In this document: positions 1-29,235 of the stretch, piece by piece
Layout: every line of letters begins with the position of its first letter
Position numbering within the stretch: position 1 is the stretch's first letter
Virus record (IMG/VR): IMGVR_UViG_2671181055_000004
Reading direction: 5' to 3' (one strand)
Source: a virus
Lineage: Duplodnaviria; Heunggongvirae; Uroviricota; Caudoviricetes
DNA length: 39,417 nt
Notes under the pieces: model-generated
What the model saw: only the letters and a program-made list of their open reading frames with translations
Told to the model about the DNA's origin: nothing
Databases searched by the model: none
Translations under genes and position numbers: made by a program

Positions 1-70
1 TCGGTTTACGGGAAACGGTAAACAGGGCGGCGAATGCTCTGCCATCGGACGGCACCGCCGTTGCCGCGAA
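1..70. repeat. Left inverted repeat of the invertible tail-fiber segment (window starts inside the crossover site)
   Basis: nt 1-70 is the reverse complement of 1250-1319 with one mismatch (position 38 vs 1282); weaker similarity continues to about 130 bp. Confidence 0.85.
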
Positions 71-362
71 TAGACTCGCCACCCCAAGAAATATTAATGG
101 GGTTCCCTTTGACGGGACGCAGGACATAAACATCACTTCTGGTATAACACAGCAGGATGCGGATTCCCGATATATCCAGGATATCAGGCTGGGAGCAGAG
201 AACAGGCAGGTAATGTACGGTGGGGCATATTACTCTGCGTACGGTAATGTTATGGCAGGCCTGCAGATTGACAGTAAAGTTGATGCTTCAAACGATTTTA
301 TAGCATTCAGACCCCTGCAAAAATTAGTCGGAGGTACATGGATTACGGTATCTCAGTTATAA
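1..362 (+). CDS. Tail fiber protein, variable C-terminal segment (Sv-like; 5' partial, fused to a constant part outside this contig)
   Basis: Open frame from position 3 to TAA at 360-362; translation ...ETVNRAANALPSDGTAVAANRLATPRNINGVPFDGTQDINI... shows tail-fiber repeat motifs; no start codon because the frame enters through the inverted repeat. Confidence 0.7.
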   Translation, partial: GLRETVNRAANALPSDGTAVAANRLATPRNINGVPFDGTQDINITSGITQQDADSRYIQDIRLGAENRQVMYGGAYYSAYGNVMAGLQIDSKVDASNDFIAFRPLQKLVGGTWITVSQL

Positions 363-413
363 ATAGTCAGTAAATAATATATTTTAAAACAGATTTATTT
401 CCAGGAGGATTTT

Positions 414-935
414 ATGGAACTAAAAAATATAACCCGTTATTATCCTGAAAATATGCCATATGGTAATAATGTTCAGTATTTCCAGAGTGAAGATGGTAAG
501 GATTTCTACGAATCCCTGCCATTATTCACCAAAAAATATAAACTTTGCATAACACCTGACAGCGGCGTTATCTGCTCAATATCACAGGACGCCTCGGCGC
601 TGTATCCTGCGGGGTTTTCTGTGGTTGAGGTCGATGAACTCCCTGAAGGCACGGATATTTCAGGAAACTGGAAGTTTGATAATGGCATAATCTCCCGTAT
701 TCCGGTTAACTACGCAAGAAAACTGGAAGCAATGCGCCAGTCATATCTTAATCAGGCATATGAAAAAATTAATGACTGGAGAACGGAGCTACAACTGGGC
801 ACCATCAGCGATGAAGACAGAGCAGCACTTACCCAATGGATGGCATACATCAGTCAGGTGAAGAAAATGGAACTACCCGCCATTAAAACAGAAGCTGAAT
901 TTAACGCCATTAAATGGCCTGAGCAGCCACAGTAA
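414..935 (+). CDS. Tail fiber assembly chaperone (Tfa / Mu U-like)
   Basis: 173-aa ORF directly after the tail-fiber C-terminus; C-terminal region resembles the Tfa family; lower GC than surrounding genes, typical of tfa. Confidence 0.8.
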   Translation: MELKNITRYYPENMPYGNNVQYFQSEDGKDFYESLPLFTKKYKLCITPDSGVICSISQDASALYPAGFSVVEVDELPEGTDISGNWKFDNGIISRIPVNYARKLEAMRQSYLNQAYEKINDWRTELQLGTISDEDRAALTQWMAYISQVKKMELPAIKTEAEFNAIKWPEQPQ

Positions 936-966
936 TAAAGAAGGCCGGAAGGCCTTCTGAATATCA

Positions 967-1317
967 TTATATACTTGCAGCCGTCACCCATGCTCCATTT
1001 AACAGATACTGCAACGGCCGGTAATACACGCCGCCGACGTTATCTGCCGTATTCTTACCGACATCCTGTACTTTAATTCCGGTAAGAACATTGCCGCCCC
1101 CCAGATTCAGATCCCAGCTTTCCCATGTTCCGGGCATATGTGCGGTCACCGACCCCAGTCTTATGGCGGTTACTGTTCCTGATGAGATAGTGATATCCTG
1201 CGTCCCGTCAAAGGGAACACCATTAATTGTGTGGGCATTTGCCAGCCTGTTCGCGGCAACGGCGGTGCCGTCCGATGGCAGGGCATTCGCCGCCCTGTTT
1301 ACCGTTTCCCGTAAACC
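967..1317 (-). CDS. Alternative tail-fiber C-terminal segment (Sv'-like), no own start codon, expressed only after inversion
   Basis: Minus-strand frame open from the inverted repeat (GLRETVNRAANALPSDGTAVAANRLANAHTINGVPFDGTQDITI...) to the stop at 967-969; N-terminal 23 aa are almost identical to the plus-strand Sv segment. Confidence 0.65.
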   Translation of the reverse strand, partial: GLRETVNRAANALPSDGTAVAANRLANAHTINGVPFDGTQDITISSGTVTAIRLGSVTAHMPGTWESWDLNLGGGNVLTGIKVQDVGKNTADNVGGVYYRPLQYLLNGAWVTAASI

Positions 1318-1319
1318 GA
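1250..1319. repeat. Right inverted repeat of the invertible tail-fiber segment
   Basis: Reverse complement of window 1-70. Confidence 0.85.
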
Positions 1320-1331
1320 GGTTTTCAGGAA
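1306..1331. promoter_or_regulatory. gix/hix-like recombination site (12-bp imperfect inverted half-sites flanking a 2-bp core at 1318-1319)
   Basis: TTCCCGTAAACC-GA-GGTTTTCAGGAA at the outer edge of the inverted repeat, next to the invertase gene; layout resembles Gin/Hin crossover sites (recalled, not aligned). Confidence 0.55.
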
Positions 1332-1396
1332 AGCCAGGATTAACTCTGTTTTATTCCTCATGCGACAATTCCGGCTTTTTATAATAAGGAAATCGT

Positions 1397-1969
1397 ATGC
1401 TGATTGGGTATATCAGGGTGTCAACAAATGACCAGAATACGGCGCTACAAAGAAATGCGCTGGAATGTGCAGGATGTGAGCTGTTTTTCGAAGACAGAAT
1501 AAGCGGTAAGACAAGGGAGCGTCCCGGACTTAAACGCGCATTAAAGCGACTCCGGCCAGGGGATACCCTGCTGGTCTGGAAACTGGATCGCCTTGGACGC
1601 AGTATGCAGCACCTTGTCCTTTTAACAGAAGAACTCCGGCAACGCGGCGTTAACTTCCGCAGCATTACGGACAATATTGATACATCCACTCCCATGGGAC
1701 GTTTCTTTTTCCATATAATGGGCGCGCTGGCGGAAATGGAGCGGGAACTCATTATTGAACGTACACGCGCGGGTCTTGCTGCTGCCCGTGCTCAGGGGCG
1801 TCATGGCGGCAGACCTCAGAAACTGACAGAGAAAGAGCGGGAGCAAATCGCCCGTTTGCTGGCTAATGGCGAGTCCCGTAAACAAATCGCACTGATATTT
1901 GATATTGGCCTTTCCACCCTTTATCGTTATTTTCCTGCCTCACCAGCTCCGTCACCAAAAGTACCGTGA
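1397..1969 (+). CDS. gin: Serine DNA invertase (Gin/Pin/Cin/Hin family)
   Basis: 190 aa, N-terminal MLIGYIRVSTNDQNTALQRNAL... with catalytic-serine region and C-terminal HTH (STLYRYF); close to my recall of Mu Gin; sits immediately outside the invertible segment. Confidence 0.9.
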   Translation: MLIGYIRVSTNDQNTALQRNALECAGCELFFEDRISGKTRERPGLKRALKRLRPGDTLLVWKLDRLGRSMQHLVLLTEELRQRGVNFRSITDNIDTSTPMGRFFFHIMGALAEMERELIIERTRAGLAAARAQGRHGGRPQKLTEKEREQIARLLANGESRKQIALIFDIGLSTLYRYFPASPAPSPKVP

Positions 1970-2054
1970 CGCTTTTTTGAATTTCCGCAAAACACATATT
2001 TTTCAGCGGTCGCTATTCTGACTCTGTTTAATTCAGAAACAGGCAGAAAAGACG

Positions 2055-4109
2055 ATGTCAGACTCCAAGTGGAAAATGCTCTCCGCCATGCCCGGAGAGT
2101 TTTCAGTCAAGGTTGCCGGTGGCACGGTGGCATTTATTGAAAGCCCTTTCCGCCCTTCGGGTAATAAAGGGGGGATCACCTTCGCAGACTGCGTGATCCG
2201 CTTCAGCACGAAAGAGCCATTATGGGTAATGCCGGTATCCGGTAATCCCAGTGCAGAAATCACCAGTTCAGGCGTGACTGGCATCATTCCAATCACATCT
2301 GACGTGGCCGGAACGCTCACGCCCTCCGACTGGAATGCACCGGATAACGCCGGGCCTTCCGGTAGCACGAATGGCAGCAGTTCAGAGCCGGAATATTACT
2401 TTGTTGTCATTCTCGCGGGTCAGTCAAATGGCATGGCCTACGGCGAGGGGCTGCCGTTACCGGATTCGTTTGACCGCCCGGACCCACGCATTAAGCAACT
2501 GGCACGCCGCAGTACGGTAACGCCCAACGGTACGTCGTGTACATACAACGACATCATTCCGGCAGACCACTGCCTGCATGATGTTCAGGATATGAGCGGG
2601 ATAAACCACCCGAAAGCTGATCTGGCAAAAGGCCAGTACGGGACTGTCGGTCAGGGGTTGCATATTGCCAAAAAACTGCTTCCCTATATCCCACAGAATG
2701 CCGGGATACTTCTGGTGCCCTGTTGTCGTGGCGGGTCAGCATTCACCACTGGAGCCGACGGCTCATTCAGTGAGGCCAGCGGTGCTTCCGCTGATTCTTC
2801 ACGCTGGGGGGCCGGTAAACCTCTGTATCAGGACCTGGTAAGCCGCACCAAAGTCGCGCTGGCGAAAAACCCGAAAAACAAACTTCTGGCTGTGGTCTGG
2901 ATGCAGGGAGAGGCAGACCTTGCCTCAGGAAGCCAGCAGCATAATAGTTTATTCACGGCCATGGTTCAGCAGTTCAGAACTGACCTGGCTCCGCTTGCTG
3001 CGCAGTGCGTGAGTGGAAATGCCACCACGGTGCCGTGGATTTGCGGTGATACCACGTATTACTGGAAAAACGCTGGCACCGATAAATATGAGGCAGTATA
3101 CGGTGGCTACAAAGGCAAGGAAGCACAGAAAATTTTCTTTGTACCGTTCCTGACGGATGAGAATGGACAGAGCACGCCAACGAATGCTCCGGCGGAAGAC
3201 CCGGATATTGTGGCTGTCGGGTATTACGGTGCAGCATCCCGAACCCAGGGCAGTTTTGTTTCGACACAGCGTGACAGCCATTTCAGCTCATGGGCACGCA
3301 GGGGCGTCATTTCAGACCGTCTGGCCTCAGCTATTATGCTCCATGCAGGGCGCACGGCTGAACTGATGCGTGGGCAGACCGTGACACCACCGGATGAGAA
3401 GCCGTCACCTGATACACCATCAAAACCGTCCACGCCACCCGCAGACACCACGACGATGAGTACGCTATTTGCTTACCGGGCATCTGAGTCTGAAGGACGG
3501 TTGACACCACAGGGTTGGGCTGCCGGAGGTGGCAAGGCTCAAATCGTGGATGATGCCGGAGCCAGCGGGGGTAAGGCAATGAAACTGACCAAGGAAACAG
3601 GAAGAGCCCCCTGGTACCTTGAGCATGATGCTGGTAATGGTGCGGACCTGCTGGGTAAAGGTGGTCTTGTCAGTTGTCGTTTTAAACTCGATGGCGCGCT
3701 TACGGCTAATCAGTACGCACTGGCGCTGTACTGGCCGGTTTCTGCCCTGCCGCAAGGGGTTACTCTGGAAGGAAATGCCGGTCATAACCTGCTGGCATCG
3801 TTCTACGTACAGAGCGATGCCACAGACCTTAACGTGATGTATCACAAAGGAAACACGGCGCAGAACACGAAGCTGGGGTCATTCGGCGCATTTAATAACG
3901 AATGGCATACGCTGGGCTTCCGTTTTGCCGGTAACAACAGTATTGAGGTGACGCCGGTCATTGATGGTAAGGACGGGACACCATTCATGCTGTCGCAGTC
4001 TCCGGTCGGCACGTTTACGGCAGACAAGTTGCGCGTGACCGATATCACTAAAAATGCGACTTACCCGGTACTGATTGACAGTATCGTGGTGGAAGTGAAT
4101 AACGCGTAA
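2055..4109 (+). CDS. SGNH/SASA-type carbohydrate O-acetylesterase with Pro/Thr-rich linker and C-terminal beta-sandwich-like domain (NanS-p-like sialate O-acetylesterase candidate)
   Basis: 684-aa ORF with RBS-like AGGCAGAAAAGACG before the ATG; motifs FVVILAGQSNGMAYGEG and VVWMQGEADLASG resemble sialate O-acetylesterase/DUF303 blocks; linker PPDEKPSPDTPSKPSTPPADTTT. Confidence 0.55.
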   Translation: MSDSKWKMLSAMPGEFSVKVAGGTVAFIESPFRPSGNKGGITFADCVIRFSTKEPLWVMPVSGNPSAEITSSGVTGIIPITSDVAGTLTPSDWNAPDNAGPSGSTNGSSSEPEYYFVVILAGQSNGMAYGEGLPLPDSFDRPDPRIKQLARRSTVTPNGTSCTYNDIIPADHCLHDVQDMSGINHPKADLAKGQYGTVGQGLHIAKKLLPYIPQNAGILLVPCCRGGSAFTTGADGSFSEASGASADSSRWGAGKPLYQDLVSRTKVALAKNPKNKLLAVVWMQGEADLASGSQQHNSLFTAMVQQFRTDLAPLAAQCVSGNATTVPWICGDTTYYWKNAGTDKYEAVYGGYKGKEAQKIFFVPFLTDENGQSTPTNAPAEDPDIVAVGYYGAASRTQGSFVSTQRDSHFSSWARRGVISDRLASAIMLHAGRTAELMRGQTVTPPDEKPSPDTPSKPSTPPADTTTMSTLFAYRASESEGRLTPQGWAAGGGKAQIVDDAGASGGKAMKLTKETGRAPWYLEHDAGNGADLLGKGGLVSCRFKLDGALTANQYALALYWPVSALPQGVTLEGNAGHNLLASFYVQSDATDLNVMYHKGNTAQNTKLGSFGAFNNEWHTLGFRFAGNNSIEVTPVIDGKDGTPFMLSQSPVGTFTADKLRVTDITKNATYPVLIDSIVVEVNNA

Positions 4110-4123
4110 GCAGGATAAAAAAA

Positions 4124-4158
4124 TGCCGCCGGTAAGGGAAAACAAGAAACCGGCGGCA
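4124..4158 (-). terminator. GC-rich hairpin with adjacent A/T tract (terminator-like when read on the minus strand)
   Basis: TGCCGCCGGT ... ACCGGCGGCA stem (10 bp) with a 15-nt loop, preceded on the plus strand by a run of A (a T-run 3' of the stem on the minus strand). Confidence 0.3.
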
Positions 4159-4253
4159 AAAAGATCGTTATATCCAAAGCAAAAAATGCAGTGCACCTTT
4201 TTACCTAACAGATATTACCGGTGTCAACACCATGTCAATAATTGGGAGGGATA

Positions 4254-4436
4254 ATGACATTTTTACAGCTTATTTTATTGTATTTCTGCACGGCAGTATG
4301 TGCGTTATATCTGGTGAGTGGTGGTTATAAGGCCATCAGAAATTATGTTCGCCGCAAAATTGAGGACGCAGCAGCTGAAAAACTCAGTAAAACAGCGCAG
4401 GTAACTCCGCTCCCAAAAGACCCGACCCAGCCCTGA
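4254..4436 (+). CDS. Small membrane protein (60 aa, one predicted TM helix, basic/charged tail)
   Basis: ATG at 4254 with GGGAGGG 4 nt upstream; MTFLQLILLYFCTAVCALYLVSGGYKAIRNYVRRK...; alternative TTG start at 4242. Confidence 0.4.
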   Translation: MTFLQLILLYFCTAVCALYLVSGGYKAIRNYVRRKIEDAAAEKLSKTAQVTPLPKDPTQP

Positions 4437-4471
4437 TTGCAGGGCTTTATTCCCGCATAAGGAGGATATAC

Positions 4472-4726
4472 ATGCCAGAAATTAAAGGCACCGTCACTGA
4501 AGACCTGGTAAAACAGGCACTGTATTCCGGTGAAGTAAATAAGTTGCTGAAAGCGCAGGTCCGCAAGGATTTTGAGGCACAAATCGACACTTACGTTGAT
4601 GAAGTGCTGGCAAAACTTATTGGGCCAGCAGTTGCGGCCAGTGATGCTGATAATGAGCCGAAAACCGACGCGCAGCCAGAGCAACCAGACCCGGCTCAGC
4701 CCGGAACTGACAGTACCATGATGTAA
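4472..4726 (+). CDS. Hypothetical 84-aa protein with acidic Pro-rich C-terminus
   Basis: Strong SD AAGGAGG 6 nt before ATG 4472; followed by a hairpin at 4733-4758. Confidence 0.5.
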   Translation: MPEIKGTVTEDLVKQALYSGEVNKLLKAQVRKDFEAQIDTYVDEVLAKLIGPAVAASDADNEPKTDAQPEQPDPAQPGTDSTMM

Positions 4727-4732
4727 CAATAC

Positions 4733-4758
4733 AAACCGGTGGTGTCCTCTGCCGGTTT
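4733..4758 (+). terminator. Hairpin after the 84-aa ORF (weak terminator candidate)
   Basis: AAACCGG-(12 nt)-CCGGTTT; the T-run is short. Confidence 0.3.
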
Positions 4759-4893
4759 GACACTAATGAAAACATCTTTGCCGCTATCCAGCCATATGTA
4801 ATCGCTGGATAGTATTTCGTATTCAGAAATATAGCTGCTTATGGAGCAGTCAATCCTGCTTCCCCATCCGGGCAGGCAAATGAACCGGTATCA

Positions 4894-5187
4894 TTAGTCC
4901 GATTCACGCTTTTGTAGAATCGTTCCCAGAATGCTATACAGCTCATTAGCCTGTTGCTCCATCATTGAGACGGAGGCTATACGGTGCAAAGTGATTTCAG
5001 GAGGTGGCACACCTCCATCTTCTTGCTGTGGAGGAAAAACATAAGATTTAATAAAAAAGTTGAAGCATATGAACTCTCCCGCACTCGAACTGTATTTGCA
5101 GGCATCTGAATAATCGGAAAAATAATCATTATAGATTTCCGCATTTTCAATCATTTTTCGATTTCTCGTCGTTACATGATTGTCCAT
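4894..5187 (-). CDS. Hypothetical 97-aa protein in a low-GC island, divergent from com/mom
   Basis: ATG at 5187 with AGAGG 6 nt upstream; surrounding 4740-5440 is visibly AT-rich compared with the phage backbone; no recognisable domain. Confidence 0.45.
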   Translation of the reverse strand: MDNHVTTRNRKMIENAEIYNDYFSDYSDACKYSSSAGEFICFNFFIKSYVFPPQQEDGGVPPPEITLHRIASVSMMEQQANELYSILGTILQKRESD

Positions 5188-5262
5188 AGCAGCCTCTTAC
5201 GCTGGCAATTAACCAATTGACTTCTATAAATTAGTTGATTTGTTTGCTTTGCGGTATTCAAA

Positions 5263-5270
5263 TGTACAAT
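5263..5270 (+). promoter_or_regulatory. Extended -10-like element (TGTACAAT) upstream of com/mom; possible Pmom-type promoter
   Basis: TGnTACAAT in the AT-rich intergenic region about 175 bp upstream of the com start; no good -35, as expected for an activator-dependent promoter. Confidence 0.25.
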
Positions 5271-5377
5271 CATTCAGCACTTATGCGTTACAGCACCGTT
5301 TAAAATTAGTGATCAAACTCATAAATTTTCGCTAATGACATTTCGTGTTATTTGTTGTATCAATTAAATAAATCAAA

Positions 5378-5400
5378 TCGATCGTTTTTGTCGATCGATT
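5378..5400. promoter_or_regulatory. Palindrome carrying two GATC (Dam) sites just upstream of com
   Basis: TCGATCG-tttttg-TCGATCGAT; GATC at 5380-5383 and 5393-5396. Confidence 0.4.
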
Positions 5401-5443
5401 GAGTGATAAAGATATCAACAACAAAGCAGGAGGTTATGCGGCC

Positions 5444-5644
5444 ATGTATCGAAACATACGGTGCCGACATTGTAACAAGCTACTGGCACGAGCCAGCTTC
5501 AGTTATCTGGAAGTTAAATGTCCGCGCTGTAAAACCCTCAATCAAATCACATCTCAGAGCGCCACAGAGCACCCCACATACACAAGGAAATCCTGTCGTG
5601 GGGAACAGAAAGCAAGTTACATCCCGTATCATCAGCACGCCTGA
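5444..5644 (+). CDS. com: Com-like zinc-finger translational activator of mom
   Basis: 66 aa, [34 protein letters not shown]... with CxxC...CxxC zinc finger; SD AGGAGG upstream; overlaps the downstream mom frame as in Mu. Confidence 0.75.
5572..5603 (+). promoter_or_regulatory. mRNA stem-loop sequestering the putative mom SD and GTG start (candidate Com-responsive translational switch)
   Basis: CCCCAC (5572-5577) pairs with GTGGGG (5598-5603); the loop contains AAGGA 9 nt upstream of GTG 5598. Confidence 0.45.
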
Positions 5645-6335
5645 ACTTATTCACTATAACGACAATATCGTCGGTTATGGCTCCCGTGAGTTACGGGTTG
5701 AGACAATAAGTTGCTGGCTGGCCCGGCTGGTCGTCGTCAATAAACATTACAGCCATCGTTTCGTAAATAATTCCTACCTTCATCTGGGCATATTTTCAGA
5801 ACGGGAGCTGGTTGGCGTAATGCAATGGGGTTATGCCCTTAATCCAAACAATGGTGCACGCGTCGTAACTGGCACGCAGAACCGCGAATATATGGAGCTT
5901 AACCGGTTATGGCTGCATGACTGTATGCCGAGAAACTCCGAATCAAGGGCAATCAGTTACGCGCTCAAACTAATCAGACAACTTTATCCGCAGGTGCAGT
6001 GGGTTCAGTCGTTTGCAGATGAGCGTTGTGGCTGTCTTGGTGTCGTGTACCAGGCAAGCAATTTTGATTATGTAGGCAGTCATGAAACAACATTCTATGA
6101 ACTTGATGGCGAGTGGTATCACGAGATTTGCAAGAATGCAATCAAACGAGGAGGACAGCGAGGTGAACATCTGCGGGCTAATATCGACAGAGCCAGTGTT
6201 CATAAATTCCGTCAGTTTCGTTACATCCGGTTTCTGGACAAGAGAGCCAGAAAACGCCTTAACACAAAGCTATTCAAAGTCCAGCCTTACCCAAAACCAC
6301 AAACAGTTAAAACTGGTTTGAAAGAGAGTGAATGA
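5598..6335 (+). CDS. mom: Mom-like DNA modification protein (start inferred at GTG 5598; the long upstream frame from 5403 is not a separate product)
   Basis: Long ORF ending at 6335 directly before the phage right end; overlaps the com 3' end in another frame; 245 aa from GTG 5598, close to my recalled size of Mu Mom (about 230-240 aa). Confidence 0.65.
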
Positions 6336-6370
6336 ACGCTTAAAAACTCATTCTAAAACTCAAAAGAAAA

Positions 6371-6411
6371 GCGCCGATTTAGTATCAAATAAGTTGCGTA
6401 TCGGCGTTTTT
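6371..6411 (+). terminator. Hairpin followed by T5 after mom (terminator candidate; the loop contains the innermost end repeat)
   Basis: GCGCCGAT ... ATCGGCG followed by TTTTT at 6407-6411; the loop is long (about 21 nt). Confidence 0.3.
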
Positions 6412-6463
6412 CAGCGGTATCAAATGAAATGCAAATCGGTATCAAAAAAATCGCCGCGCTATA
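6380..6463. repeat. Right-end terminal transposase-binding repeats (three GGTATCAAA-type sites) and phage terminus
   Basis: AGTATCAAATAAG (6381-6393), CGGTATCAAATGAAA (6414-6428), CGGTATCAAAAAAA (6437-6450); the same motif is repeated three times at the other phage end (38634-38797); terminal 27 bp align in register with the other end as an inverted repeat. Confidence 0.65.
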
Positions 6464-6548
6464 GACAGCCTAAGCGGCTGCTGACCTCCCTGACCATGCT
6501 GTAAATCTCTTTATCCTGGTTGTCACAGAATAAGCCCGGTAAAATACG
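6464..6548 (+). mobile_element. IS66-family element, 3' remnant of tnpB (host side of the insertion)
   Basis: 6466-6504 encodes QPKRLLTSLTML-stop, which joins in frame to the truncated TnpB ...GIDWR at 38810 once the shared GACA is counted once. Confidence 0.6.
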
Positions 6549-6798
6549 NNNNNNNNNNNNNNNNNNNNNNNNNNNNNNNNNNNNNNNNNNNNNNNNNNNN
6601 NNNNNNNNNNNNNNNNNNNNNNNNNNNNNNNNNNNNNNNNNNNNNNNNNNNNNNNNNNNNNNNNNNNNNNNNNNNNNNNNNNNNNNNNNNNNNNNNNNNN
6701 NNNNNNNNNNNNNNNNNNNNNNNNNNNNNNNNNNNNNNNNNNNNNNNNNNNNNNNNNNNNNNNNNNNNNNNNNNNNNNNNNNNNNNNNNNNNNNNNNN
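6549..6798. other. Assembly gap (250 N)
   Basis: Run of n characters. Confidence 1.
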
Positions 6799-20579: not shown

Positions 20580-20756
20580 ACCGGCAGCATAAGCCGGGTA
20601 TTTTTGGGGCTGGTTTTGCGGGACTTCAGAAAGTGCTGACAGGGGGGGAATGAGAAAGGCGCTTCACGCAGATTTTAAAGCCCGTTAAATACAGGTTAGA
20701 AAATCACGACACGCGCCTGAAGGGGGTAAGGTAATACGTTTGCATACCTTAAACCA

Positions 20757-28741: not shown

Positions 28742-28812
28742 TGTTACGCTGTCTCATGGTGTTCTCTGAGTCAGCGTAACCGTGAGGAAAAGGGGGCAGG
28801 ATTTGCGGAATA

Positions 28813-29235
28813 TCAGAAAAGCCGTGGCTGCGTGCGTTCCTGATGCAGGCGACGCTGGTTGCGGATAACGGAGTAAATCTGCGTCTCTGACATCTGGTAG
28901 TGGCGGCGCAGGGTTTCAATTTTTTCGCCCTGGCTCCAGCGGGAAAAAATTTCATTATTGCGCAGTTCGGTGAAAAGGGATTCACCGACCGGGAGATAAT
29001 AACCACGCCCGCCCATGTACCCGGCCTGTGCGGCTGCAACCTTACGGGCAAGCATTCCCGCCTGAGCAGGTTCAATCCCCTGACGGTGCAGTTCAGCACT
29101 GATCACATCAACCAGGTCCCGCAGCGTGCCGGGCCAGTTCTTTTTCAGCTCATCATCAGGAATATCATCCAGACGGTCAATCAGCGCGTGCAGCTGTTCG
29201 CTGTCACCAAACATGCTCATCTGTGTTTCAGCCAT
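28813..29235 (-). CDS. Mor/C-family transcriptional activator (position directly upstream of lys suggests the late activator C)
   Basis: 140 aa with ...GGRGYYLPVGESLFTELRNNEIFSRW... and a C-terminal HTH, matching the Mor/C family pattern. Confidence 0.8.
   Translation of the reverse strand: MAETQMSMFGDSEQLHALIDRLDDIPDDELKKNWPGTLRDLVDVISAELHRQGIEPAQAGMLARKVAAAQAGYMGGRGYYLPVGESLFTELRNNEIFSRWSQGEKIETLRRHYQMSETQIYSVIRNQRRLHQERTQPRLF

Follow-up and report, generated by a model that had tools for sequence, protein, structure and literature searches.

The DNA between DUF826 and com at the right end of this Escherichia coli Mu-like prophage is, as far as can be read from its sequence, a known regulatory logic in a compact arrangement, with a Dam/OxyR gate on the com-mom operon placed beside a swappable slot for accessory genes. 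The DNA-modification protein Mom is toxic, and the layers that regulate it (Dam, OxyR, C, Fis and Com) make it a textbook example of multi-layered regulation. The two-part reading that we favour, a moron slot followed by a Mu-type Dam/OxyR gate, is probable. The GATC-N9-GATC/OxyR module is the most widely conserved part of mom control across genera, and the compact layout without Mu's C site is found in a large clade to which the Sp18-type prophages common in STEC belong. This layout offers a direct test of which layers of mom control are essential.

Organisation of the prophage right end

The stretch of DNA analysed (39,417 nt, referred to as the window) is an E. coli Mu-like prophage of the Sp18 type. 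Genes for Mu-like A, B, GemA, C, I and P were found in it, and its canonical right end occupies positions 1-6464 on the plus strand, in the order gin-DUF6645-DUF1378-DUF826-slot-com-mom known from complete genomes. It starts with the invertible G segment, delimited by inverted repeats at 1-127 and 1196-1335, and continues with genes for a Gin-type invertase (1397-1969, plus strand), a DUF6645/SASA protein (2055-4109, plus), DUF1378 (4242-4436, plus) and DUF826 (4472-4726, plus). Beyond the slot, com (5444-5644, plus; PF10122, E = 7.5e-13) encodes a zinc-ribbon translational activator and lies directly 5' of mom (5598-6335, plus; GTG start; PF25680, E = 1.6e-77), which overlaps its 3' end; both are annotated by PGAP. 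This is a Mu-type com-mom operon and, as in Mu, where the com zinc-ribbon gene likewise overlaps mom, it is found at the right end of a transposable phage. The end of the phage (6382-6464, plus) contains three GTATCAAA repeats and finishes with ...GCGCTATA. This terminus, at 6464, recurs in the window and in loci L001, L002 and L003, with a different flank in each of the four, and is annotated in GenBank record LC727881 as the end of the inserted Mu-like phage. The three GTATCAAA-containing repeats (6382-6454) sit just inside the terminus and are likely transposase end-binding sites, analogous to R1-R3.

Sp18-type Mu-like prophages of E. coli O157/STEC have the same gin-DUF6645-DUF1378-DUF826 module as the window, and their com, mom and control block are 94-96% identical to those found here. 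They differ in a 12-nt patch (5401-5412) and in the slot, which in them holds another minus-strand gene, often frameshifted, in place of the gene of the window, which we call orf97. The DUF6645/SASA esterase-like, DUF1378 and DUF826 genes (2055-4726) are homologues of genes typical of the late regions of Stx phages; we considered them as a lambdoid flank and rejected this, since complete genomes place them in the Mu-like phage family. The G segment (1-1335) is inverted relative to that of strain HH35, consistent with active Gin inversion. The whole right-end module (1-6464, from the G segment to attR) lies on the strand opposite to the remainder of the prophage (6799-39417), separated from it by 85 nt of non-phage DNA (6465-6548) and exactly 250 N (6549-6798); the two parts are collinear in complete genomes, for example in HH35. 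This strand flip looks like a mis-oriented scaffold join or masked stretch, not biology.

The accessory slot and orf97

On the left, the slot is bordered by a hairpin, AAACCGG-N12-CCGGTTT (4733-4760), just 3' of the DUF826 stop codon. The hairpin is kept in the types represented by L007 and L003, similarity is lost beyond it in the alignment, and it is possibly a bidirectional terminator. On the right, similarity to the window begins at 5349 in 215 of the 233 E. coli genomes with a match to com/mom, and the whole of 4700-6450 is present in 18. The swappable cassette (about 4761-5348, 39.5% GC) consists of orf97 and its upstream region. In prophages of the O157, FORC_029 and 90-3040 types (L003, L030, L031) the slot is filled by unrelated minus-strand genes, often frameshifted, in which tblastn with orf97 gives no match. 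GC content is 39.8% in orf97 and 34.4% in the 256-bp intergenic region between it and com (5188-5443), compared to 50% in DUF826, 48% in com, 46% in mom and 54.8% in the phage body. The preliminary description had reported a 97-aa gene in a visibly AT-rich block, separated from com by 256 bp, and proposed a separately acquired moron; its composition and distances agree with ours. The presence/absence polymorphism among otherwise collinear phages (18/233), together with the deviant base composition of the cassette (39.5% against 54.8% GC), supports the moron reading, as does the occurrence of the orf97 family in other types of prophage. The accessory slot defined in this way appears to be delimited by recombination, at ~4760 on the left and 5349 on the right, and can be mined for prophage cargo genes, orf97 being one uncharacterised family in it.

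Is orf97 a real gene then? The ORF exists (4894-5187, minus strand, 97 aa) and has, as had been noted, a good ribosome-binding site, the Shine-Dalgarno sequence AAGAGG (5194-5199, minus) 6 nt before the ATG, which reads GAGAGG at the same place in L007. A 100-aa homologue with 78% identity, P0010, is found in the same slot, in prophages at different host sites, and comparison of the two genes gives a dN/dS of 0.37. The start at 5187 is better supported than the 86-aa call of PGAP because P0010 lacks a Met at position 12 and the Salmonella homologue described below aligns from residue 8. A terminator-like hairpin (4835-4849, minus; 5-bp stem, T-rich tail) was picked up by the consensus scan 45 nt 3' of the stop codon, which is weak evidence. 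No convincing conserved minus-strand promoter was found for orf97: TTGCCA-18-GACAAT, which overlaps the start codon, does not persist in L007.

The protein has no match in Pfam, PHROG or PADLOC, an exhaustive phmmer search returned close relatives only, and its fold matches, in comparisons with the PC4/PUR/Whirly and COMM-domain beta-beta-beta-alpha modules, are below significance. Among the ORFs upstream of a Salmonella com (L057) there is, however, a 108-aa homologue (29% identical over 95 aa, E = 1e-11), and profile searches then gave a small orf97 family in Salmonella, with prophage homologues 28-57% identical. Members of the family are found as terminal genes of transposable prophages without com/mom. 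In L114-L117 (3001-3312) the terminal gene belongs to Salmonella transposable prophages sitting beside cas1/cas2 and other host genes, while the family member in L112 (3001-3680) belongs to a P2-like element of Salmonella and precedes a 126-aa gene in the same orientation. On comparative sequence evidence, orf97 is a genuine, independently oriented gene. It encodes a small protein of acidic character (pI 4.7, net charge -6), for which a sheet of three strands, a C-terminal helix and a cytoplasmic location are predicted, and whose family is scattered through enterobacterial prophages. Most likely it is a prophage-expressed moron that acts by binding another protein, a role that is a guess.

The GATC pair upstream of com

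Between 4167 and 7935, GATC occurs at 5311, 5380 and 5393 only. The first (5311-5314) is present in orf97-type cassettes only, while the other two (5380-5383 and 5393-5396), 13 nt apart, form a GATC-N9-GATC pair of Dam targets (5380-5396), a pattern that occurs once in the 39.4-kb window. The pair is embedded in a palindrome (5376-5400) that reads AATCGATCG / TTTTTGT / CGATCGATT, its 9-nt arms enclosing a 7-nt loop. The palindrome with two GATCs that had been described at 5378-5400 is therefore real, but slightly longer, and the GATC at 5311 had been overlooked. Could all this be chance in AT-rich DNA, with orf97 a spurious ORF? Three GATCs in 256 bp appear in 2.8% of dinucleotide shuffles, a 9-nt perfect inverted repeat in 2.5% of 2000 such shuffles of the intergenic region, and orf97 matches no family in the databases searched, all of which would be compatible with chance. 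The 13-nt pair, however, appears in only 0.1% of the same 2000 shuffles (twice) and recurs upstream of com in related phages as described below, while orf97 has a dN/dS of 0.37 and distant homologues, and we regard this explanation as very improbable.

We compared 37 distinct 150-nt regions upstream of com from genome and viral collections. The identity of the Mom proteins spans 62-100%, so the loci are not one recent clone. A 13-nt GATC pair is present in 30 of these regions and nowhere else in these loci (113 kb); the loci without GATCs upstream of com are those of non-enteric hosts. Measured from the com start, the proximal GATC has a bimodal position, with a long class at -71 to -83 (Mu, Symbiopectobacterium and others) and a short class at -51 to -57, comprising the E. 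coli group of the window, L012 from Edwardsiella, and L057-L059, of which at least L057 is apparently from Salmonella. The GATCs had been remarked to be unusually close to com, and indeed they stand at -64/-51 from its ATG compared to -91/-78 in Mu, 27 bp nearer, yet this is a conserved alternative layout. An alignment of the five E. coli upstream types needs no gaps and shows 5349-5400 to be near-invariant, 5401-5412 hypervariable and 5413-5443 invariant. In phages that do not differ in the flanking 50 nt, the hypervariable patch diverges by about 50%, yet its length is always 12 nt.

The palindrome could instead act as RNA, as a hairpin in a long com leader that controls stability or translation, with incidental GATCs and a transcription start further upstream (from 5335-5363 or from TACAAT at 5265-5270). 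A stem of 9 bp is possible, and all five E. coli upstream types retain the element ATGAC(A/T)-17-TATCAA although its flanks and spacer have diverged. However, ATGAC and TATCAA are not kept in L057, L059 and L012, there is no Rfam match, and the folding of the leader is ordinary (z = -1.13, with 26 of 200 shuffles folding as well). Outside the E. coli group the arms lose their complementarity without compensatory changes, while the GATC cores persist at unchanged spacing, which favours a function in DNA methylation over one in RNA. We consider the RNA hairpin to be quite unlikely.

In length, the conserved block at 5349-5400 roughly matches an OxyR tetramer site, conservation begins at its edge, and we propose that OxyR would bind here. 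The candidate proximal half-site, ATCGTTTTTGTCGAT (5381-5395), lies inside the palindrome, and the candidates for the distal one are at 5359-5373 (22-nt spacing) and at 5350-5364 (31-nt spacing), the latter starting approximately at the edge of the block. The match to the OxyR consensus at 5359-5395 is 13/20, a score exceeded at none of the 39,381 positions in the window; it is modest, in AT-rich DNA, and two unrelated positions reach the same score. The GATCs are thus found within an OxyR-consensus site upstream of com, as in the Mu Pmom module, and the pair fits within one OxyR dimer half-site of the GATCG-N7-CGATC form, as in the known OxyR/Dam epigenetic switches (agn43, gtr, opvAB).

Comparison with Mu mom and P22 gtr

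In Mu, GATC2 and GATC3 are 13 nt apart like the pair in the window, and the two pairs align. The strings ATCAATTAAAT, AAATCGATCG and GATCGATT are common to both sequences upstream of com, and the best OxyR-consensus site of Mu ends on the last GATC in exactly the same register as 5359-5395. Both phages have a short leader with a strong Shine-Dalgarno sequence, and both encode C, or in the window its orthologue, just before lys. We consider it likely that the GATC pair is a homologue of the Dam/OxyR module of Mu, and somewhat less certain, but still probable, that it works as a Dam/OxyR switch in this phage.

There are clear differences as well. With the Mu +1 placed from the -58 to +20 oligonucleotide (PMC4461284) and from PMC3378877, Mu GATC1-3 are at -87, -69 and -56, and the C site, TTAT-N6-ATAA, at -50 to -37, ahead of a poor -35 element. 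The three GATCs of Mu are spaced by 18 and 13 nt, whereas the window has the 13-nt pair alone; at the position of GATC1 it reads TATC, with 4 extra nt. In the 47 nt between the last GATC and the com ATG we found no TTAT-N6-ATAA dyad, TAAGAT -10 or T6 run, all of which follow the GATCs in Mu. With the pair 27 bp nearer to com, there is no room for the C-activator site of Mu, and this applies to the short class as a whole. The upstream neighbour also differs, being the divergent cassette gene in the window and gin in Mu.

The closest parallel for the form of the site is found at P22 gtr, where each 13-nt GATC pair lies within one OxyR dimer half-site and Dam methylation abolishes binding (PMC2909390). 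GATC-N9-GATC occurs in the P22 genome as two pairs only, and both are these methylation-sensitive OxyR half-sites, GATCGCTTGTATCGATC and GATCGGTAACAACGATC. The window reads GATCGTTTTTGTCGATC, the same palindromic GATCG-N7-CGATC form with 13-nt GATC spacing, and is identical to the OxyR(C) half-site GATCGCTTGTATCGATC at 14 of 17 positions. The promoter-proximal pair probably overlaps the -35 region in both: it is at -46/-33 in gtr and would be at about -45/-32 in the window if the -10 is at 5413-5418, with an offset from the second GATC to the -10 of 21 nt in P22 and 20 nt to this candidate here. In contrast to the two GATC pairs and three half-sites of gtr, which allow alternative ON and OFF binding states, the window has one pair, and therefore a bistable switch is not evident. 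Even for Mu mom, phase-variable expression is not established (PMC2909390). The suggestion in the preliminary description that a Mu-like, Dam-dependent switch is plausible here gains from the alignment with Mu GATC2/3, the P22 gtr form and the retention of the pair across genera, all of which point to such a switch.

Promoter candidates and the C orthologue

Where would transcription of com and mom start? An extended -10-like element had been indicated at 5263-5270 (plus strand). The sequence, TGTACAAT, is there, but it is not an extended -10, because the TG directly adjoins TACAAT without the intervening base of TGnTATAAT. No -35 hexamer with more than 3/6 matches precedes it, and it was not reported by the consensus scan. 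It is specific to the cassette, outside the conserved com control region, and is missing from O157-type relatives and from most relatives with the same com/mom. With a poor -35, wrong TG spacing and a location within the variable cassette, it finds no support as the com/mom promoter.

Three other candidates are worth considering. A relaxed scan gives a weak candidate -10 at TATCAA (5413-5418, plus; TATCAT or CATCAA in relatives). Together with TTGTCG (5388-5393) it could form a promoter with a 19-bp spacer (5388-5418), the spacer length of the weak Mu promoter, in which case the hypervariable patch, whose length does not change and which has an invariant block on either side, would be a promoter spacer. 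Alternatively, a degenerate -10 could lie within the patch (5401-5412) itself, where L057-L059 have TATACT or TATAGT; the Salmonella relatives thus have a good -10 (TATACT) at the place that is hypervariable in E. coli. The third candidate, ATGACA-17-TATCAA (5335-5363), is conserved in E. coli and not beyond; if it is used, the GATCs are transcribed and the occlusion picture that we propose below changes. The Shine-Dalgarno sequence of com, AGGAGG (5428-5433, plus), is invariant among the five E. coli types.

The single C orthologue (28813-29235) shares 40% identity with Mu C, and we saw no separate gene for Mor. The lys (28793-28808) and I (20606-20621) late promoters, both on the minus strand, have CCGCAAAWCCWGCCCC-14 nt-TAYGCT in common, which is probably the recognition element of this C orthologue. 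This bears on another explanation of the palindrome, as the operator of a dimeric regulator encoded by the phage, either the C orthologue or another protein, which would replace the C site of Mu. The dyad is indeed at the place of the Mu C site relative to com, the phage does encode a C orthologue, and the candidate -35 elements are poor, suggesting a need for an activator. However, the late-promoter motif CCGCAAAWCCWGCCCC-14 nt-TAYGCT is absent near com, no further copy of the dyad or its half-site is found in the phage above chance, and the extended arms are not kept in other genera, and this reading seems unlikely to us. For the same reasons, that no C site fits and that the phage's own late-promoter motif is absent, the Mu-style role for a C-like activator implied previously finds no support in the region.

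Proposed mechanism

Returning to the two-part reading, we propose that the cassette (4761-5348) is an accessory-gene slot between DUF826 and the com control region, holding orf97 in this phage, and that the palindrome would be the promoter-proximal half of an OxyR binding site, with its two GATCs as the Dam targets. As long as these are unmethylated or hemimethylated, OxyR would bind and com-mom would be off. Full Dam methylation would block OxyR and allow transcription, and Com would then permit the translation of mom. We infer the Dam and OxyR steps by homology, as they are those of the Mu mechanism. The OxyR-like site appears to occupy the place taken in Mu by the C-activator site and the -35 element. 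A site at this place would imply that OxyR itself blocks access to the core promoter, in the manner of OxyR(BC) at P22 gtr, and that activation by the C orthologue must differ or be absent.

A more speculative extension, to which we give little weight, is that in the short class the OxyR/Dam pair displaced the C site and sits on the core promoter, so that mom is gated without C, and that the same block may drive a leftward promoter, analogous to momP2, into the slot gene. A candidate for such a momP2 analogue is TCGACA-18-TATTTA (5394-5365, minus strand). If true, a single epigenetic operator would serve the anti-restriction operon and an exchangeable moron, possibly heterogeneously among lysogens.

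Variation of the com-mom operon in related loci

Several related loci show departures from the standard operon. In L049 (IMG/VR 2654587996_000001) an expanded CAA repeat, CAACAACAACAACAAAG, is found between the palindrome and the com Shine-Dalgarno sequence, and this shifts the GATC pair to -70/-57. In L031 (2596-3802; E. coli 90-3040) and in SW070917, com and the control block are followed by a DNA cytosine methyltransferase gene that replaces mom; com-X operon swaps of this kind are reported for FluMu and B3 (PMC3299994). Finally, the Mom homologues in L078-L111, L011, L014, L019-L022 and L025 have no recognisable Com zinc ribbon upstream. Their Mom identity is about 62-70%, with 77-79% in L011 and L014, and mom without com is common in some lineages.
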